Below are positions 46,973 to 64,000 of a stretch of 64,000 bases of DNA, piece after piece. Both the position numbers and the translations under genes were made by a program. Numbering within the stretch: the stretch's first letter is position 1; every line of letters begins with the position of its first letter. The notes under the pieces were generated by a model. It saw only the letters and a program-made list of their open reading frames with translations, was not told the DNA's origin and did not search any database. Source of the stretch: a virus; the IMG/VR virus record IMGVR_UViG_3300025137_000028, positions 1 through 64,000 of that record; one strand, written 5' to 3'.

Positions 46973-48688
46973 ATGATAAGATTTAAAAAAATTAAGTGGA
47001 AAAATTTTCTGTCAACAGGTAATACACCAATAGAAGTTGACTTAGATAAATCAAACACAACACTTGTTATAGGTACAAACGGTTCAGGCAAGTCAACTTT
47101 ACTAGACGCCATGACTTTTGTTTTATTTAATAGACCATTTAGAATAATAAAAAAAGAACAAATGGTTAATACGATAAACAATGGTGAAGCATTAGTAGAA
47201 ATAGAATTTTCAATAGGTACTAAACAATATAAAGTTATTAGAGGTATTAAACCTAACATATTTGAAATATATGAAGACGATCAATTAATAAACCAAGACG
47301 CTTCTAGTATTGATTATCAAAAGATATTAGAAAGAAATATAATGAGATTAAGTTATAGATCATTTATTCAAGTAGTAATATTAGGGTCATCATCTTACGA
47401 GCCATTTATGAAAATGAAATCTCGTTATAGAAAAGAAGCAGTTGAAGAGATACTTGACATAAAAGTATTTTCACATATGGACTGGATGTTAAGAGATCAA
47501 CAATCTGTTTTAAATAAAAAGATTATAGAAGTTAAACATAATGCTGATCTAGTAAAATCTAAGTATGAATTAGAAAGTAAACACTTTAATGAAATAAAGA
47601 ATAGAAATACAGATGATAAGACACAAAAAGAACAACAGTTAGATAAATTAAACTTAGATAAAAAAGATTACTTAGAAAAGATACAAAAATTAGATGGTGA
47701 ATATACACAACTAAAAGAACAAACAATTGATAAAGGTCCTCAAACAACAAGATTAACTCAATTAGAAAAACTAGAAACAAAGATAGAACAAAATTTAGAA
47801 ACTCATACAAAGAATTTAGAGTTTTTTGAAGAAAATGATACCTGTCCTACTTGTACACAACCAATTGATGAAACATTTAAATTAGGAAAACAAGAAGAAC
47901 TAAAGAGTAAAGTTGTTACCTTAAATGAAGGTATGAAAAAATTAGTAGAAGAAATATCTACTACTGAAACTAAATTATCAGAAATTAATTCTATATCTGA
48001 AAAAATGTCAGATTTAAATATAGAAATGTCAAAAGTTAATACATCAATAAATGAACTTAAAAAATTTAGTGACAATCTACATAATGAGATATTATTGTTA
48101 GATAACAAAAAAGAGGACAGTGATAATATAGAAAAACAATTAGAAGAATTAAAAGTTAATTTAGAACAATCACAAGTTGATTTAGATAAAATTACCGAAG
48201 AAAAAACATATATTGATACAGTTAGAGAAATACTATCTGAAAAAGGTGCTAAAACAAAAATTATTAAAAAGTATTTACCTATAATGAATACTTTAATAAA
48301 TCAATACTTACAAGATATGAACTTCTTTGTTAACTTTCATTTAGATGAAGAGTTTAACGAGACAATAAAAAGTAGATTTAGAGATACTTTTAATTACAAT
48401 AATTTTAGTGAGGGTGAAAAACTAAGAATAGATTTAGCATTGCTATTTACTTGGCGACAGATTGCTAAAATGAAAAATAGTACAAATACAAACGTTTTAA
48501 TATTAGATGAAATATTTGATAGCTCATTAGATGGTCAAGGTACAGATGACTTCTTTAAAATTATTAAATCACTATCAAAAGAAAATATCTTTATTATATC
48601 ACATAAGGGCGATATACTATTTGATAAATTTACTAATATCATAAAATTTGATAAAATAAATAACTTTACGAGGTTACAGAATGTCTAA
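46973..48688 (+). CDS. gp46: recombination ATPase gp46 (Rad50/SbcC-like)
   Basis: GTNGSGKS, CPTC hook, FSEGEK, LDEIFD, ISH. Confidence 0.96.
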   Translation: MIRFKKIKWKNFLSTGNTPIEVDLDKSNTTLVIGTNGSGKSTLLDAMTFVLFNRPFRIIKKEQMVNTINNGEALVEIEFSIGTKQYKVIRGIKPNIFEIYEDDQLINQDASSIDYQKILERNIMRLSYRSFIQVVILGSSSYEPFMKMKSRYRKEAVEEILDIKVFSHMDWMLRDQQSVLNKKIIEVKHNADLVKSKYELESKHFNEIKNRNTDDKTQKEQQLDKLNLDKKDYLEKIQKLDGEYTQLKEQTIDKGPQTTRLTQLEKLETKIEQNLETHTKNLEFFEENDTCPTCTQPIDETFKLGKQEELKSKVVTLNEGMKKLVEEISTTETKLSEINSISEKMSDLNIEMSKVNTSINELKKFSDNLHNEILLLDNKKEDSDNIEKQLEELKVNLEQSQVDLDKITEEKTYIDTVREILSEKGAKTKIIKKYLPIMNTLINQYLQDMNFFVNFHLDEEFNETIKSRFRDTFNYNNFSEGEKLRIDLALLFTWRQIAKMKNSTNTNVLILDEIFDSSLDGQGTDDFFKIIKSLSKENIFIISHKGDILFDKFTNIIKFDKINNFTRLQNV

Positions 48689-49226
48689 AGATTTACAATT
48701 AATACCACCTAACGATCCAAGAGTTTGTTCAGCAATCGCACCATTTAGTGACGATATGTTAAAAGAACACAATCTAAAAGATAGACAAGAACTATCTGAT
48801 AATATGTTTGAATTAATGTTTAAATATGGTGGTATAGGGTTATCAGCAAATCAAGTAGGTTTACCTTTTAATATGTTTGTTATGGGTGGGCATCCTGAAT
48901 TAGAAAAAGGTTTAAGAATGACTTGTTTTAATCCTATGATTATATCAGCTAGTGAAGAAACAATTGTTATGAAAGAAGGTTGTTTAACTTTTCCTTTTAT
49001 GTTCTTATCTATTACAAGACCTAGAAAAGTTGTAGTAAAATATGAAGATGAAAAAGGTGATCTAAAAGAAGGTCATTTAGACGGCATGATTAGTCGTATT
49101 TTTCAACATGAACACGATCACATGTTAGGTAGATTATTTACAGAGAGAGCTAGTAAACTTAAACTAAAGAGGGCAAATATATATGCTAAAAAACAAATCA
49201 AAAAAATATCGAAAAGAAAAAAATAA
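48681..49226 (+). CDS. def: peptide deformylase
   Basis: GIGLSANQVG, EGCLT, QHEHDH. Confidence 0.95.
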   Translation: MSKDLQLIPPNDPRVCSAIAPFSDDMLKEHNLKDRQELSDNMFELMFKYGGIGLSANQVGLPFNMFVMGGHPELEKGLRMTCFNPMIISASEETIVMKEGCLTFPFMFLSITRPRKVVVKYEDEKGDLKEGHLDGMISRIFQHEHDHMLGRLFTERASKLKLKRANIYAKKQIKKISKRKK

Positions 49227-49347
49227 AATTTTTGAACATAATCCTAGTACAGGAGTTATTAGATGGCGTTATGTTGGTGAATCACCAGACAAGTTTGGCT
49301 GGCCGAACTATGGAAGAATATTAAAGAATGTCAAAAAACGAAATTAA
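49183..49347 (+). CDS. 54-aa hypothetical protein
   Basis: Read by eye: ...KIFEHNPSTGVIRWRYVGESPDKFGWPNYGRIL. GAGG upstream. Fills the 49227-49327 gap. Confidence 0.6.
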   Translation: MLKNKSKKYRKEKNKIFEHNPSTGVIRWRYVGESPDKFGWPNYGRILKNVKKRN

Positions 49348-49948
49348 AAAATTATTTCCTACACCCTTATACATAGGTAACATAGGTGTAAATGAAGACT
49401 GGCTAACTTATATTAATTCATTAGATTTTGAGTTAACTTATTTAAAAAACGGTTTACAAACACAAGACAGACATATACTTTTACATAAAGAATTATCATC
49501 ATTAAAGAAAAAAATAGATGATGAGTTTGAGATATATGCTAGAGATAAACTTAGAATAAATAAAAAACATAATTTTGAAATGATAAACTCATGGTGTAAT
49601 ATACATAATCAAGGACATGTAGCACAACCACATCATCATCAAAATAGTATGTTTAGTGGTGTGTATTATTTACAATCAACAGAGAATACAGGTGCTATTA
49701 AGTTTAATCAAAGTCCTTTTAAGAGTTGGAATAATATTATGATTAAATTAGAAATAGATGAAGGAAATGAATTTAATAATGATGAATGTATAATTAATCC
49801 TATGCCTGGTACAGTAGTGTTATTTCCGTCTTGCGTTTCACATGAAACAGATGTAAACAATACAACACATCAAAGATATTCACTTGCCTTTAATTACTTT
49901 CCTAGAGGTCAGTTTGGTGATAAAGAATCATACTTGGAGATAAAATAA
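49328..49948 (+). CDS. 2OG-Fe(II) oxygenase (TIGR02466-like)
   Basis: LFPTP, SWCN, PHHH.NS..SGVYY, FPS...H, RYSLAFN. Confidence 0.9.
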   Translation: MSKNEIKKLFPTPLYIGNIGVNEDWLTYINSLDFELTYLKNGLQTQDRHILLHKELSSLKKKIDDEFEIYARDKLRINKKHNFEMINSWCNIHNQGHVAQPHHHQNSMFSGVYYLQSTENTGAIKFNQSPFKSWNNIMIKLEIDEGNEFNNDECIINPMPGTVVLFPSCVSHETDVNNTTHQRYSLAFNYFPRGQFGDKESYLEIK

Positions 49949-50547
49949 TGAATGTAGAAATTACAGATGACTTTATAGGAATATTTGATAATTTTTTTAC
50001 AGACGAATATATTGAAAATTATATTACTTACTTTGAAAAAATGAATAAAAACAATTTAACTTTCAAAAGAGAGTTTAGTCCTAGCCATGAAGTTGATGAC
50101 ACAGCATTTGATGAGCTTTCAGAACCATTTTATATAAAAGAATTACCTGTACATTACATGGCAAAAAATTTTATTGATATATTTTTTAATCAAAAACATG
50201 GACCATATCAAAGATATATTGAAAAGTTTAGTATTTTAAAAACACAAGGTAGACACTCAATATTTGATATAAAGATACAAAAGACAGAGCCAGGTCAAGG
50301 GTATCATATTTGGCATGTAGAAAATAGCCAATTAACTAGTAGAAATAGAGTTACTGCTTTTACATTGTACTTAAATGATGTAGAAGATGGTGGCGAGACA
50401 GAGTTTTTATATCAAAAAAGAAGAATTAAACCTAAGAAAAATAGATTAGTTATTTGGCCTGCTCATTTTACTCATGTACATAGAGGAAATCCACCCTTAT
50501 CAAATGACAAATATATTTTAACTGGTTGGACTGAATACTCTTATTAA
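49948..50547 (+). CDS. 2OG-Fe(II) oxygenase
   Basis: GYHIWHVE, YLNDVEDGGETEF, THVHRGNPP..KYILTGW. Confidence 0.92.
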   Translation: MNVEITDDFIGIFDNFFTDEYIENYITYFEKMNKNNLTFKREFSPSHEVDDTAFDELSEPFYIKELPVHYMAKNFIDIFFNQKHGPYQRYIEKFSILKTQGRHSIFDIKIQKTEPGQGYHIWHVENSQLTSRNRVTAFTLYLNDVEDGGETEFLYQKRRIKPKKNRLVIWPAHFTHVHRGNPPLSNDKYILTGWTEYSY

Positions 50548-56966: not shown

Positions 56967-57164
56967 ATGAGAGTTGATGTTAGAAACAATAATGTAGAAC
57001 AAGCATTAAGAGTTTTAAAGAAAAAATTAATGAAAGATGGTCGTCTTAAAGAATTAAAAGAAAGAGCATATTATATTAAACCCTCTGAGTTGAAAAGAGA
57101 AGCAAAAAAACGTGGTATTATTAACTATAAAAAGAACAAAAAAAAACTAGATCAACAACGTTAG
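56967..57164 (+). CDS. rpsU: ribosomal protein bS21
   Basis: V.VRNNNVEQALRVLKKK...ELKER.YY.KPSE.KR. GGAGG SD. Confidence 0.92.
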   Translation: MRVDVRNNNVEQALRVLKKKLMKDGRLKELKERAYYIKPSELKREAKKRGIINYKKNKKKLDQQR

Positions 57165-57398: not shown

Positions 57399-57851
57399 AT
57401 GACAGATCACAAAGCAATTCACTCAATTTTTACTGGACTAAAACCGTTTACTGTAGGGTTTGACGATATGTTTGACCATTTAGATATGGTACACAATCAC
57501 ATTCCACATTTAACGGCTAATAACTATCCGCCATACAATATTGTAAAGACAGGCTCTTTAACATATGACATAGAAGTGGCATTGGCTGGTTATAATAAGA
57601 AAGATGTACAAGTAACTTATGAGAATAATATGATTAAAATTAACTCTGTAAAAAGTAAAGACGAAAAAGAAGTTGAAGACAATGACGGAATATTACATAA
57701 AGGCATTGCTAAAAGAAACTTCTATAAATCTTTTACTATAGCAGAGGATATTGAGGTAAAAGGTGCTGAATTAAAAGATGGACTTTTAAGAGTATCTTTA
57801 GAAAAAATTGTTCCAGACCATAAGAAGGCTAGAACTATCAATATCAAATAA
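57399..57851 (+). CDS. hsp20: small heat-shock protein Hsp20 (IbpA-like)
   Basis: VGFD..FD, NYPPYNIVK, IEVALAG, LHKGIAKR.F, A.LKDGLL. Confidence 0.95.
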   Translation: MTDHKAIHSIFTGLKPFTVGFDDMFDHLDMVHNHIPHLTANNYPPYNIVKTGSLTYDIEVALAGYNKKDVQVTYENNMIKINSVKSKDEKEVEDNDGILHKGIAKRNFYKSFTIAEDIEVKGAELKDGLLRVSLEKIVPDHKKARTINIK

Positions 57852-60976: not shown

Positions 60977-61495
60977 ATGAGAGTTGATTTATTTTCAACT
61001 CCCATATTGATAGATGACTTTGATATTACTAAGTTAAAATTTGTAGAAGAAGGTCAGCAAACCCAATTTGGCAGTGAAATAAAAACCAGTCATGGTTTTA
61101 CTAACATTATAGAAAAAGATAGTTTAGATTATTTCTACAATAAGATAGTAAGTAATTTAGATCAAGTTATTTCCCAATCATATCATGTTAAAGCAGATAA
61201 TATATGGCGTAACTACTATAAAGAAGGTGACTGGCAAGAAAAACACACCCATATAGGTTCTGACTTTTCATTTATAATTTATGATAGTGTAAAGTCTAAT
61301 ACTTGGTTTGTTCACCCAGCACACTATTTAATACAAGAAAAATATAAAGATAAAAAACTATTTGATACAGAGGTAAAACCTCATATCAATTATGGTCAGA
61401 TTTGTATTTTTCCTAGTTACTTAGAGCATTATGTGTCTAAAGCTGAAAGTCAATCAACAACTATATCAGGTAATTTAAGTATAGAAATAAAATGA
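60977..61495 (+). CDS. 2OG-Fe(II) oxygenase-like (HxH type)
   Basis: LFSTP, W.N.Y, QEKHTH, FPSYLEHYV, TISGN. Confidence 0.82.
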   Translation: MRVDLFSTPILIDDFDITKLKFVEEGQQTQFGSEIKTSHGFTNIIEKDSLDYFYNKIVSNLDQVISQSYHVKADNIWRNYYKEGDWQEKHTHIGSDFSFIIYDSVKSNTWFVHPAHYLIQEKYKDKKLFDTEVKPHINYGQICIFPSYLEHYVSKAESQSTTISGNLSIEIK

Positions 61496-62829
61496 GTTTA
61501 TACGATTTTGATAACCCTACAGCAAAGACTAAAAGAATATTAGTCTATCCTAATATTACTTTTGCTAAAGATTTATCTAAAGATAGTTATATTCAAGTAA
61601 TTAAAAAACACATAACATTGTTAAATGAAATAAGAGACGATCTCTGGTTTTATTTAATATTACCTAAAGAGGTGCCAGAGTTAGCATTTGATAATGTTAC
61701 ACAATTGTTTTTAGATTTGCCTACTCACCCTCCTACTATGAGGGCACATTTTGATTCACAAGCTATTAAAAAACTTGTACCTAAAAACATAGATATAGAC
61801 TTGGTCATGTCACATCTACCAGAACATACCTATGACTTAAAAAATGTTTTGTATAATGTAACTAATCATGTACCTAAATTTTTTGGTTACTGTCATTGGT
61901 TTGATTTAAAAGCAGTAGCAAACTGGCATATGAATAGTTTTAAAAAGAATATTGTAGGTGTTTTAGAAATGGATAGATGTTATTTAAATACAGAGAGTCA
62001 AAAGAAATTAGTTATTGAAGAAGCAAAAGAAACTTTTAGTGACAGAGTAATATGGGATTTAGATAAAAAATTAACAGTTCAACATTTAGGTGTAGATGAA
62101 AAAGATATTGTAAAAGATATAAAAAGAGTAGAAGAAAAAATTATAGTATTCAATCATAGACCAGACACATACAAACATTACAAAGAATTTTTAAAAGTAT
62201 GTGATAAACTATATGAACAAAGACAAGATTTTAAAGTGTGGGTACCTTTGGCAAGTAAAGCAGATAGAGAATATATAACAACTGAAAGTGGTGATAAAGA
62301 TTTTTATTATAAAAAACTACAAGATTGTTACATAGGTTATTCACCTAAACAATCTTATGGTGGGTGGTCTGTTGCGACAACAGATGGTATGATGAATGGT
62401 ATACCTTATTTAATGTATGACGCTGACTATTACAGAGAGTTATGGGATAAGGGTGTCTTTGTAAAAAATGATGATGAATTATTAGAAAAATTAAACTTCT
62501 ATTTAGATAATGAATATAATAGAAATGTTTTAGCAGATGAAAGTTTACAACACATAAGATATAGATTAATTTTTAAAGACGAAGTAAAACAAATGAGTGA
62601 TTACATAGATGAATTACATGATACTTTACCTAAGGTAAAAACCTCAGAAAAGATAAAAGAGATTATAAGTTGGATACAAAAAGAAAAACGTGTATCTAAA
62701 AGTGAAATTATGAAGAGATTAGGTTGGGGAGTAGGTATTAAGTGGACACAATATCGTGCCACACTATTGACTCACCCTAACATTTATGATATACTATCAA
62801 AAGATCCTGTATATTGTTGGATCGATTAA
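61492..62829 (+). CDS. GT-B glycosyltransferase
   Basis: IVFNHR...K, Y...L, GWSVATTDG...GIP nucleotide-sugar-binding region. Confidence 0.72.
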   Translation: MSLYDFDNPTAKTKRILVYPNITFAKDLSKDSYIQVIKKHITLLNEIRDDLWFYLILPKEVPELAFDNVTQLFLDLPTHPPTMRAHFDSQAIKKLVPKNIDIDLVMSHLPEHTYDLKNVLYNVTNHVPKFFGYCHWFDLKAVANWHMNSFKKNIVGVLEMDRCYLNTESQKKLVIEEAKETFSDRVIWDLDKKLTVQHLGVDEKDIVKDIKRVEEKIIVFNHRPDTYKHYKEFLKVCDKLYEQRQDFKVWVPLASKADREYITTESGDKDFYYKKLQDCYIGYSPKQSYGGWSVATTDGMMNGIPYLMYDADYYRELWDKGVFVKNDDELLEKLNFYLDNEYNRNVLADESLQHIRYRLIFKDEVKQMSDYIDELHDTLPKVKTSEKIKEIISWIQKEKRVSKSEIMKRLGWGVGIKWTQYRATLLTHPNIYDILSKDPVYCWID

Positions 62830-62848: not shown

Positions 62849-63793
62849 ATGTCAGATTTTTTATGGGTTGAAAAGTATCGACCTAAAAAAATTAGTGATT
62901 GTATTCTTACACAAGAACTGAAAGATACATTTACAAAATTTTTAGAACAAAAAGAAATACCTAATTTACTATTATCAGGTACAGCAGGTACAGGTAAAAC
63001 TACTGTTGCTCGTGCTTTATGTGAAGAGTTAGGTACAGATTACATTATCATTAATGGTTCAGATGAAGGTAGACAGATTGATACACTTAGAAGTAAGATC
63101 AAAAACTTTGCCGCCACTGTATCACTTACCGAAGACGCCAATCATAAAGTTGTAATTATAGACGAGGCAGATTACATGAATGCTGACAGTGTTCAACCTG
63201 CTTTAAGAAACTTTATAGAAACATTTTATAATAACTGTAGATTTATATTTACTTGTAATTATAAGAACAAAATTATACCAGCCTTACATAGTCGTTGTAC
63301 AGTTATTGATTTTAAAATTGTAAATGGTCAAAGAGTTAAAACTGCTACTGCCTTTCTTAAAAGACTAGAGGGTATTCTAAATGATGAACAAGTAGGTTTT
63401 GATAAGAAAGTATTAGCAGAGTTAATACAAAAATATTATCCTGACTTTAGAAGAACAATAAACGAGTTACAAAGATATGCTGTAAGAGGTAAGATAGACA
63501 GTGGTATTTTGTTTAGTTTATCTGAGGTAAATCATAAAGAGTTAATGCTGACTTTAAAAGAAAAACGTTTTAATGATATGAGAAAATGGGTTGTACAAAA
63601 CTTAGACAAAGAACCATCACATTTATTTAGAACCATTTATGATGTATTGTATAAAGAATTAGATCCTAAGGCAGTACCACAAGCAATATTAATTATTGCT
63701 GGCTATCAATATAAAGCTGCCTTTGTTGCTGACCAAGAGATTAATATGGTCGCATGTTTAACTGAAATAATGGCGAGTTGTAAGTTTAGGTAA
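62849..63793 (+). CDS. gp44: clamp loader large subunit gp44
   Basis: LWVEKYRP, GTAGTGKT, DEAD, LHSRC, PDFRR. Confidence 0.96.
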   Translation: MSDFLWVEKYRPKKISDCILTQELKDTFTKFLEQKEIPNLLLSGTAGTGKTTVARALCEELGTDYIIINGSDEGRQIDTLRSKIKNFAATVSLTEDANHKVVIIDEADYMNADSVQPALRNFIETFYNNCRFIFTCNYKNKIIPALHSRCTVIDFKIVNGQRVKTATAFLKRLEGILNDEQVGFDKKVLAELIQKYYPDFRRTINELQRYAVRGKIDSGILFSLSEVNHKELMLTLKEKRFNDMRKWVVQNLDKEPSHLFRTIYDVLYKELDPKAVPQAILIIAGYQYKAAFVADQEINMVACLTEIMASCKFR

Positions 63794-63797
63794 GACT

Positions 63798-63905
63798 ATG
63801 CCTCATAAAAAAAATCCTATAGCAAAAGAAGTAAGAACACCTAAGTATAAACCAAGAGTAGTAAAACCTAAAAAAGGTAAAGGTAGTTTTAAAAGAAAAA
63901 AGTAA
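63798..63905 (+). CDS. arfA: 35-aa ArfA-like ribosome rescue peptide
   Basis: Read by eye: MPHKKNPIAKEVRTPKYKPRVVKPKKGKGSFKRKK. Confidence 0.65.
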   Translation: MPHKKNPIAKEVRTPKYKPRVVKPKKGKGSFKRKK

Positions 63906-64000
63906 TGATAGAAAAAGAAGTAATAAATGAAATGAAAGAGTTACAACCCTTTCACAAAGAGAACCTTATAAAAGGTTTATATTCTTGGCAAGAGTTTGAA
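63905..64000 (+). CDS. hypothetical protein, truncated by the window end
   Basis: ATG overlaps the previous stop (TAATG). Open to the edge. Confidence 0.65.
   Translation, partial: MIEKEVINEMKELQPFHKENLIKGLYSWQEFE

Follow-up and report, generated by a model that had tools for sequence, protein, structure and literature searches.

The closest described relative of the gene analysed here is arfA of Escherichia coli (YhdL; PF03889). Its product is encoded with 72 aa, 55 aa of which make up the active form, and it is represented in the PDB by entries 5MGP, 5MDV, 5U4I, 5H5U and 7OJ0. BrfA of Bacillus and ArfT of Francisella are other release-factor-dependent rescue factors. In E. coli ArfA, a hydrophobic N-terminal minidomain (aa 2–16; I11, A18, L19, L24) opens release factor RF2 by its folding (PMC5378476). 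Further along the chain, P23 packs on A1492/A1493, F25 makes a hydrophobic contact with β4/β5 and Trp319 of RF2, and Q27–E30 form a β-strand added to RF2 superdomain II/IV (PMC8012679, PMC5378476). The basic segment that follows binds the mRNA channel, and a protein cut to residues 1–40 is inactive (PMC8012679). The variant ArfA(A18T) indicates that binding without activation is possible (PMC8012679, PMC5378476).

ArfA of phage origin has already been annotated in the literature. In 2025, gene gp30 of the pelagiphage HTVC027P, listed as hypothetical in GenBank, was described as carrying an ArfA domain and as being transcribed both early (3 hpi) and late (12–15 hpi) (PMC12753301). A second case is gene g10 of Citromicrobium phage vB_CbaS-RXM, whose host is a marine alphaproteobacterium; a 2022 paper gives it the annotation ArfA (PMC8953757). 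No functional study of ArfA from any phage or from SAR11 was found in a literature search.

The locus to be compared with these systems lies on a 73,930-bp IMG/VR virus record, bases 1–64000 of which form the window, that is, the whole stretch of DNA analysed (64,000 nt; 31.8% GC). The original prediction placed an ORF with a TAATG overlap between gp44 and the next gene, and its coordinates, frame and peptide were all reproduced: the translation of 63798..63905 (+) is exactly MPHKKNPIAKEVRTPKYKPRVVKPKKGKGSFKRKK (35 aa). The ORF and its surroundings comprise the following features:

62849..63793, plus strand: gp44 clamp-loader large subunit, T4-type, 314 aa (Pfam AAA plus Gp44_lid; phrog_168, E 6e-123)
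63788..63791, plus strand: Shine-Dalgarno-like AGGT, 6 nt 5' of the arfA-like ATG and overlapping the gp44 stop codon (read directly)
63798..63905, plus strand: arfA-like gene, ATG start, 35 codons plus TAA (ORF and translation read directly)
63905..64531, plus strand, running past the window end (64000): JmjC/cupin oxygenase gene (PF08007 JmjC_2, E 6e-10 on L004:1575-2198)
64510-65097, on the phage's own record beyond the window: 2OG-Fe(II) oxygenase gene
from 65094, on the phage's own record beyond the window: gp62

The gap between the gp44 stop and the arfA-like ATG is 4 nt, and the AGGT at 63788..63791 may serve as a functional Shine-Dalgarno sequence. At the other end, the last A of the arfA-like TAA (63903-63905) is the first base of the next ATG. 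That start codon belongs to the JmjC-type oxygenase gene, and gp62, which begins at 65094, was rejected as the gene directly 3' of the ORF. A scan of the window for RNA genes found no tRNA, tmRNA or Rfam family. The ORF had been described as missed by the gene track; it is genuine, but it is known to public gene calls, in which the exact 35-aa protein occurs unnamed on 6 contigs (JGI/IMG, ENA, Logan). One member of its 90% cluster is named "alternative ribosome-rescue factor" by JGI. The nucleotide sequence of gp44 is 77.8% identical to that of Pelagibacter phage Mosig EXVC030M and 70.7% identical to that of HTVC008M. This likeness identifies the window as a pelagimyophage relative, the host of which is therefore probably a SAR11 bacterium.

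The Pfam profile for ArfA (PF03889) matches the peptide at 31.0 bits (E 1.7e-7), above its curated cut-off of 25.5, with peptide residues 11–35 aligned to profile positions 17–41 of 44 and positions 1–16 unmatched. When the complete 73,930-bp record was scanned in six frames with this profile, the arfA-like ORF (29.7 bits) was the single match. Among 14 control genomes one match alone exceeded the cut-off, and the control matching at a stricter threshold was E. coli. A phmmer search of 177,635 PDB sequences gave six matches, exclusively E. coli ArfA chains, and aligned peptide residues 4–34 without gaps to ArfA 12–42 (offset +8). The predicted ungapped alignment to the E. coli core was thereby recovered, and the profile check proposed with it, now run, gave a score above the curated cut-off and unique in the record. 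The homology also goes beyond a lysine-rich composition, as the ORF is the sole PF03889 match in an AT-rich, lysine-codon-rich record. Judged from these comparisons, the resemblance to ArfA exceeds what chance or composition would produce. No match to PF00472, the RF-1/GGQ domain of ArfB, was found in the 35-aa peptide, so it does not qualify as an ArfB. It differs from BrfA and ArfT as well, having no sequence match to either (PF03889 is the sole family matched), and BrfA is made from non-stop mRNA whereas the phage product is not. A search of NCBIfam with the peptide returned no family, and PHROGs gave weak matches alone, all to families of unknown function, which explains why such genes are left unnamed by standard phage annotation.

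The family is large. With the 44-codon stop-to-stop frame as query, 324 relatives of 75–93% identity were retrieved, nearly all with a precomputed PF03889 domain; many are marine and 34–50 aa long, and several are named ArfA by JGI. The family alignment was used for the locus searches, and a family profile run against 1.84 billion proteins gave 847 cluster representatives (threshold E<=1e-3). In IMG/VR, an arfA relative is present on at least 222 contigs.

The peptide is homologous to E. coli ArfA over residues 12–42 of the latter and keeps the RF2-contact mid-region and the motif KKGKGS(Y/F)xRK. Two segments of the gene correspond to functional parts of the E. coli protein:

63840..63863, plus strand: codons 15–22 (P-K-Y-K-P-R-V-V), equivalent to E. 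coli ArfA P23–E30, the RF2-contacting aromatic and β-strand (ungapped alignment)
63864..63902, plus strand: codons 23–35 (KPKKGKGSFKRKK), the basic tail, equivalent to the E. coli mRNA-channel segment K31–G43 (alignment)

Among the kept residues, P15 corresponds to P23, Y17 to F25, P19-R20-V21-V22 to Q27–E30, and K25–K34 to K33–K42. All 145 viral and host homologues compared have Y or F as the aromatic residue, and 144 of them have V at the V22 position; by sequence, the aromatic and β-strand of an RF2-recruiting mid-region are thus both present. KKGKGS is near-invariant: a single K-to-R change occurs among the 145 copies from viruses and hosts. The peptide also contains the KKGKGS[YF]xRK motif of the mRNA-channel segment, for which binding to the channel is putative. 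The conservation extends to non-basic positions, namely N6, A9, Y/F17, V22, G27, G29 and S30, across the 145 copies.

The two ends of the peptide differ from those of E. coli ArfA. Just MPHKK precedes N6 (E. coli N14), where E. coli ArfA has its minidomain, and K10, E11 and K16 stand at the positions of E. coli A18, L19 and L24. At the C-terminus, the peptide stops at the position of E. coli residue 43 and has neither a KH motif nor a further tail; its length is 35 aa against the 72 encoded (55 active) in E. coli. The earlier statement that it stops right after the functional motif is consequently too simple: the KH motif is absent, the minidomain is nearly so, and E. coli ArfA(1-40) is inactive.

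A further difference from E. coli arfA concerns regulation. The phage gene ends in an ordinary TAA that shares a base with the following ATG, and it contains no internal hairpin; its product does not come from a non-stop mRNA. Folding of 63770-63990 gave a z of -1.15 and folding of the host (SAR11) arfA a z of +0.99, neither of which amounts to significant RNA structure. A non-stop design was rejected for the phage and the host gene alike, no significant hairpin or terminator being present in either. With an ordinary stop and no significant RNA structure, the peptide would escape tmRNA control, and this predicted escape is a property of the SAR11 lineage, not of the phage. The original prediction of a minimal, unregulated phage version holds in so far as there is no sign of a non-stop or RNase III design; trimming by the phage is not supported, since the ArfA of SAR11 has the same architecture.

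This host protein is a mini-ArfA encoded on the SAR11 chromosome and called "stalled ribosome alternative rescue factor ArfA" by JGI. The best 80 of 353 cellular loci all belong to Pelagibacteraceae, on contigs of up to 1.36 Mb (L085-L164, e.g. L131:3977-4105; L090). Their ORFs are 34–40 aa long, with an ordinary stop 4–9 codons past KKGKGSF (mostly 5; the phage tail has 4), so that phage and host forms share length class, core and stop placement. The phage peptide conforms to this SAR11 type, which is 34–50 aa long, has the core NP[IVM]AK..[RF]T.K[YF]K.[RK][VI]VKPKKGKGSFKRKK and ends at an ordinary stop 4–9 codons after KKGKGSF. In one SAR11 genome the gene lies amid housekeeping genes (a response-regulator-like gene, PfkB kinase, HhH-GPD glycosylase and YkuD). 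Exactly one ArfA match at E<=0.01 was found in 132 of 201 Pelagibacterales genomes, a count that takes in one unpublished genome, G083 (131/200 without it); 59 matches lie above the Pfam cut-off. The trimmed architecture is therefore typical of the lineage and not a phage invention. A published survey recorded arfA in 0 of 2,376 Alphaproteobacteria genomes, and the SAR11 gene, if its product is active, would correct the view that Alphaproteobacteria lack ArfA (PMC11633108).

The partners expected for such a factor are present in the host clade. Two near-complete SAR11 genomes (G001 and G002) both encode SmpB, an alpha-type tmRNA, RF1 and RF2, and a search of these two genomes for an ArfB-sized RF-1-domain protein found none. 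Their RF2 proteins each have the SPF motif, GGQ and a CTT TGA frameshift site, and the switch-loop Trp is invariant in the 21 alphaproteobacterial RF2 sequences aligned; the RF2 tally included the unpublished genome G241, which was kept out of the alignment. As SAR11 keeps a single conserved copy of arfA and ArfB is missing from the two genomes examined, the simplest interpretation is that the trimmed form acts as an RF2-dependent rescue factor, with the phage copy doing the same in infection. The CTT TGA site in SAR11 prfB (L168, L169) is the classic autoregulatory +1 frameshift site and is preceded by a Shine-Dalgarno-like AGGGGG or AGGAG.

Phage and host copies can nevertheless be told apart. 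Over the core, the window peptide is up to 94% identical to viral copies and up to 90% identical to host copies. At the positions of E. coli residues 16–20, viral copies mostly read E-V-R-T-P, as does the window peptide, whereas host copies mostly read D-L-F-T-K; of the 80 host copies, 18 carry R instead of the "F" and 17 carry P instead of the "K". On a tree built from 146 core sequences, 7 changes account for the viral/host label, compared with about 43 when labels are shuffled, and the nearest rows to the window copy are all viral; with 31 columns the tree is poorly resolved and usable solely for such label clustering. By its viral signature and the clustering of labels, the gene is a member of a viral pool that already existed, not one newly captured from a host.

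Conservation of the ORF in related phages, which the original prediction depended on, is borne out. In about 19 of the viral loci fetched, all from uncultured pelagimyophage relatives, arfA directly follows a gp44 homologue of 79–89% aa identity, either in a short form (L006, L007, L043) or extended at the N-terminus by "MPGKWDGRSR..Y..W..IF". Over 31 core codons, dN/dS against the window copy is 0.17 for 65 viral and 0.14 for 80 host sequences, at a dS of 0.8–1.1, and these ratios of about 0.15 indicate that the arfA-like gene is under purifying selection. In the same roughly 19 relatives, gp62 comes after arfA, usually at 110–130 nt, with no JmjC or 2OG gene between. A conserved coupling of arfA to JmjC was rejected on this ground, and by gene order the genome studied has the JmjC/2OG pair as an additional insertion ahead of gp62. 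The post-gp44 slot of the cultured phages Mosig and HTVC008M holds no arfA, which indicates that the gene is dispensable for this phage type, and no cultured pelagimyophage carrying it came to light; the gp44–gp62 gap of these two and of cyanophage P-SSM4 carries other cargo (dioxygenases, a hypothetical gene, or dam). Elsewhere among related myophages, arfA lies after peptide deformylase (L021) or between DUF6561-like and sigma-region-2-like genes (L012, L044, L055). At least three different slots in related myophages suggest repeated insertion or movement. Contigs that touch 63852-63901 were recovered from four marine metatranscriptome runs; they continue into dissimilar sequence, with matches to HTVC027P-like arfA and to a SAR11-host-like 3' flank, and are therefore attributed to relatives.

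Among deposited phages, tblastn with a longer family member matched HTVC027P, Cr30 and CRP-212. Gene gp30 of HTVC027P shares its core with the window peptide. It differs in belonging to another phage type, in adjoining the small terminase gene, and in its 58 aa with an N-terminal "KWDGRSR...Y..W..IF" extension absent from the window peptide; on PF03889 it scores 20.2 bits, under the cut-off, against 31 for the latter. Caulobacter phage Cr30 has an unannotated 50-codon ORF (L166:1944-2093; KF301602.1 11142-11291, minus strand) that reaches 27.2 bits on PF03889, above the cut-off. Its host, Caulobacter, gave no ArfA match among the control genomes and is also listed without ArfA in the published survey (PMC11633108). 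In Roseobacter phage CRP-212, a 41-codon ArfA ORF (33.3 bits; L167:1489-1611; MZ892988.1 39070-39192, minus strand) is read in another frame within the 3' end of the annotated gp38 CDS, representing either overlapping genes or an over-extended gp38. Further viral contigs (L057-L059, L061-L065, L067, L073) encode proteins of 121–150 aa that join the ArfA core to a C-terminal domain, "NKAGNYTKPTMRKRLF.RIKAGGKGGAPGQWSARKAQMLA.AYKKAGGGY", for which a Pfam search found no match. Other viral forms have the "MPGKWDGRSR..Y..W..IF" extension at the N-terminus or an "EPEDGWSGIV" tail.

With moderate confidence, the phage gene is read as encoding a mini-ArfA of the SAR11 type, an RF2-dependent rescue factor serving as an auxiliary gene product during infection. 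The ORF would be expressed as part of the gp45–gp44–...–gp62 replication-gene operon, probably translated by coupling to gp44. The basic C-terminal half of the peptide (KPKKGKGSFKRKK) would enter the empty mRNA entry channel of ribosomes stalled on the stop-less 3' ends of broken mRNA, and the middle segment (P15, Y17, P19–V22) would dock host RF2 by β-strand addition. RF2 would then hydrolyse the peptidyl-tRNA, leaving a ribosome that can be recycled. It is reasonable to infer that the phage peptide would rescue ribosomes stalled on degraded mRNA; alternatively, as the original prediction also allowed, it may block the mRNA channel. The phage may gain by upholding translation capacity amid disturbed host transcription and RNA turnover, when the host's short-lived rescue components would no longer be replenished. 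ArfA would thereby take its place as an auxiliary gene like those for bS21, peptide deformylase and Hsp20, which the window also carries:

48681-49226: peptide deformylase
56967-57164: ribosomal protein bS21
57399-57851: Hsp20

All three are known as pelagimyophage core or auxiliary genes. The pelagimyophage literature describes deformylase and S21 as core, translation-related auxiliary genes, with ArfA unmentioned (PMC7029224).

The truncation raises the possibility that the peptide binds the ribosome without rescuing it, filling the vacant mRNA channel and perhaps docking closed RF2, with no hydrolysis. Such a modulator could compete with tmRNA–SmpB tagging or with host ArfA, or hold ribosomes for the phage. 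It would fit the lack of the RF2-opening N-terminal minidomain known from E. coli and has a precedent in ArfA(A18T); the viral E-V-R-T-P against the host D-L-F-T-K, with labels that separate on the tree, points the same way. Yet the ArfA of SAR11 equally lacks the N-terminal part and is still kept as a single copy in two thirds of the sampled genomes, and the two SAR11 genomes examined have no ArfB, which argues that the trimmed form is active. Moreover, the viral/host signature is not absolute, given the host exceptions (18/80 and 17/80), and the RF2-contact residues are conserved in both groups alike. A role as a non-activating modulator thus seems unlikely, though it deserves more weight than the readings that take the peptide off the ribosome or deny it a function.

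One of these would make it a generic basic nucleic-acid-binding peptide descended from ArfA, acting for instance as a chaperone for RNA or DNA, as a virion or internal protein, or as an accessory to replication. K or R occupies 15 of its 35 residues, it lies in a replication operon, and some viral relatives are fused to other domains. However, the position-specific conservation of non-basic residues in 145 copies would be needless for binding by composition only, and the spread of the gene over at least three slots in related phages, one of them directly after peptide deformylase, shows that it is not tied to replication genes; this reading is very improbable. That the frame opened by chance in AT-rich, lysine-codon-rich intergenic DNA and has no product is hardly credible. 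The ORF is certainly very short, and in a sequence of 31.8% GC several other K/R-rich frames occur in the window. None of these accounts for a PF03889 match above the curated threshold that is unique in the genome, for hundreds of homologues with a dN/dS of about 0.15, or for a conserved post-gp44 position with its 4-nt gap, Shine-Dalgarno-like motif and stop/start overlap.

If the preferred reading of an RF2-dependent rescue factor is extended to the host, SAR11 and its phages could possess a distinct minimal class of such factors (34–40 aa, no minidomain or KH tail), made constitutively from ordinary mRNA and acting as the sole back-up to tmRNA where ArfB is absent. The phages would hold their own diverged pool of it (E-V-R-T-P, N-terminal add-ons, fusions of some 140 aa), adapted in infection to taking charge of ribosome recycling or to steering it away from tmRNA tagging. 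This wider proposal is put forward tentatively and is rather doubtful as a whole. Should the peptides be active, one of the most abundant virus–host pairs in the ocean would have in common a rescue factor about half the size of the active E. coli form, and free of the tmRNA-linked control by which textbook ArfA is defined. Activity would also define a minimal sequence for sensing an empty mRNA channel and triggering RF2, and ribosome rescue would join the translation functions of pelagiphages beside bS21 and peptide deformylase.

Two minor observations concern the replication module around the locus. Five oxygenase genes of the 2OG-Fe(II)/JmjC type are dispersed in it (49328-49948, 49948-50547, 60977-61495, 63905-64531 and 64510-65097). 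Just 5' of gp44, a 445-aa ORF (61492-62829) has a sub-threshold glycosyltransferase-1 match (23.6 bits, cut-off 26.4), and a protein of 77.6% identity occupies the same position in the viral contig L043.
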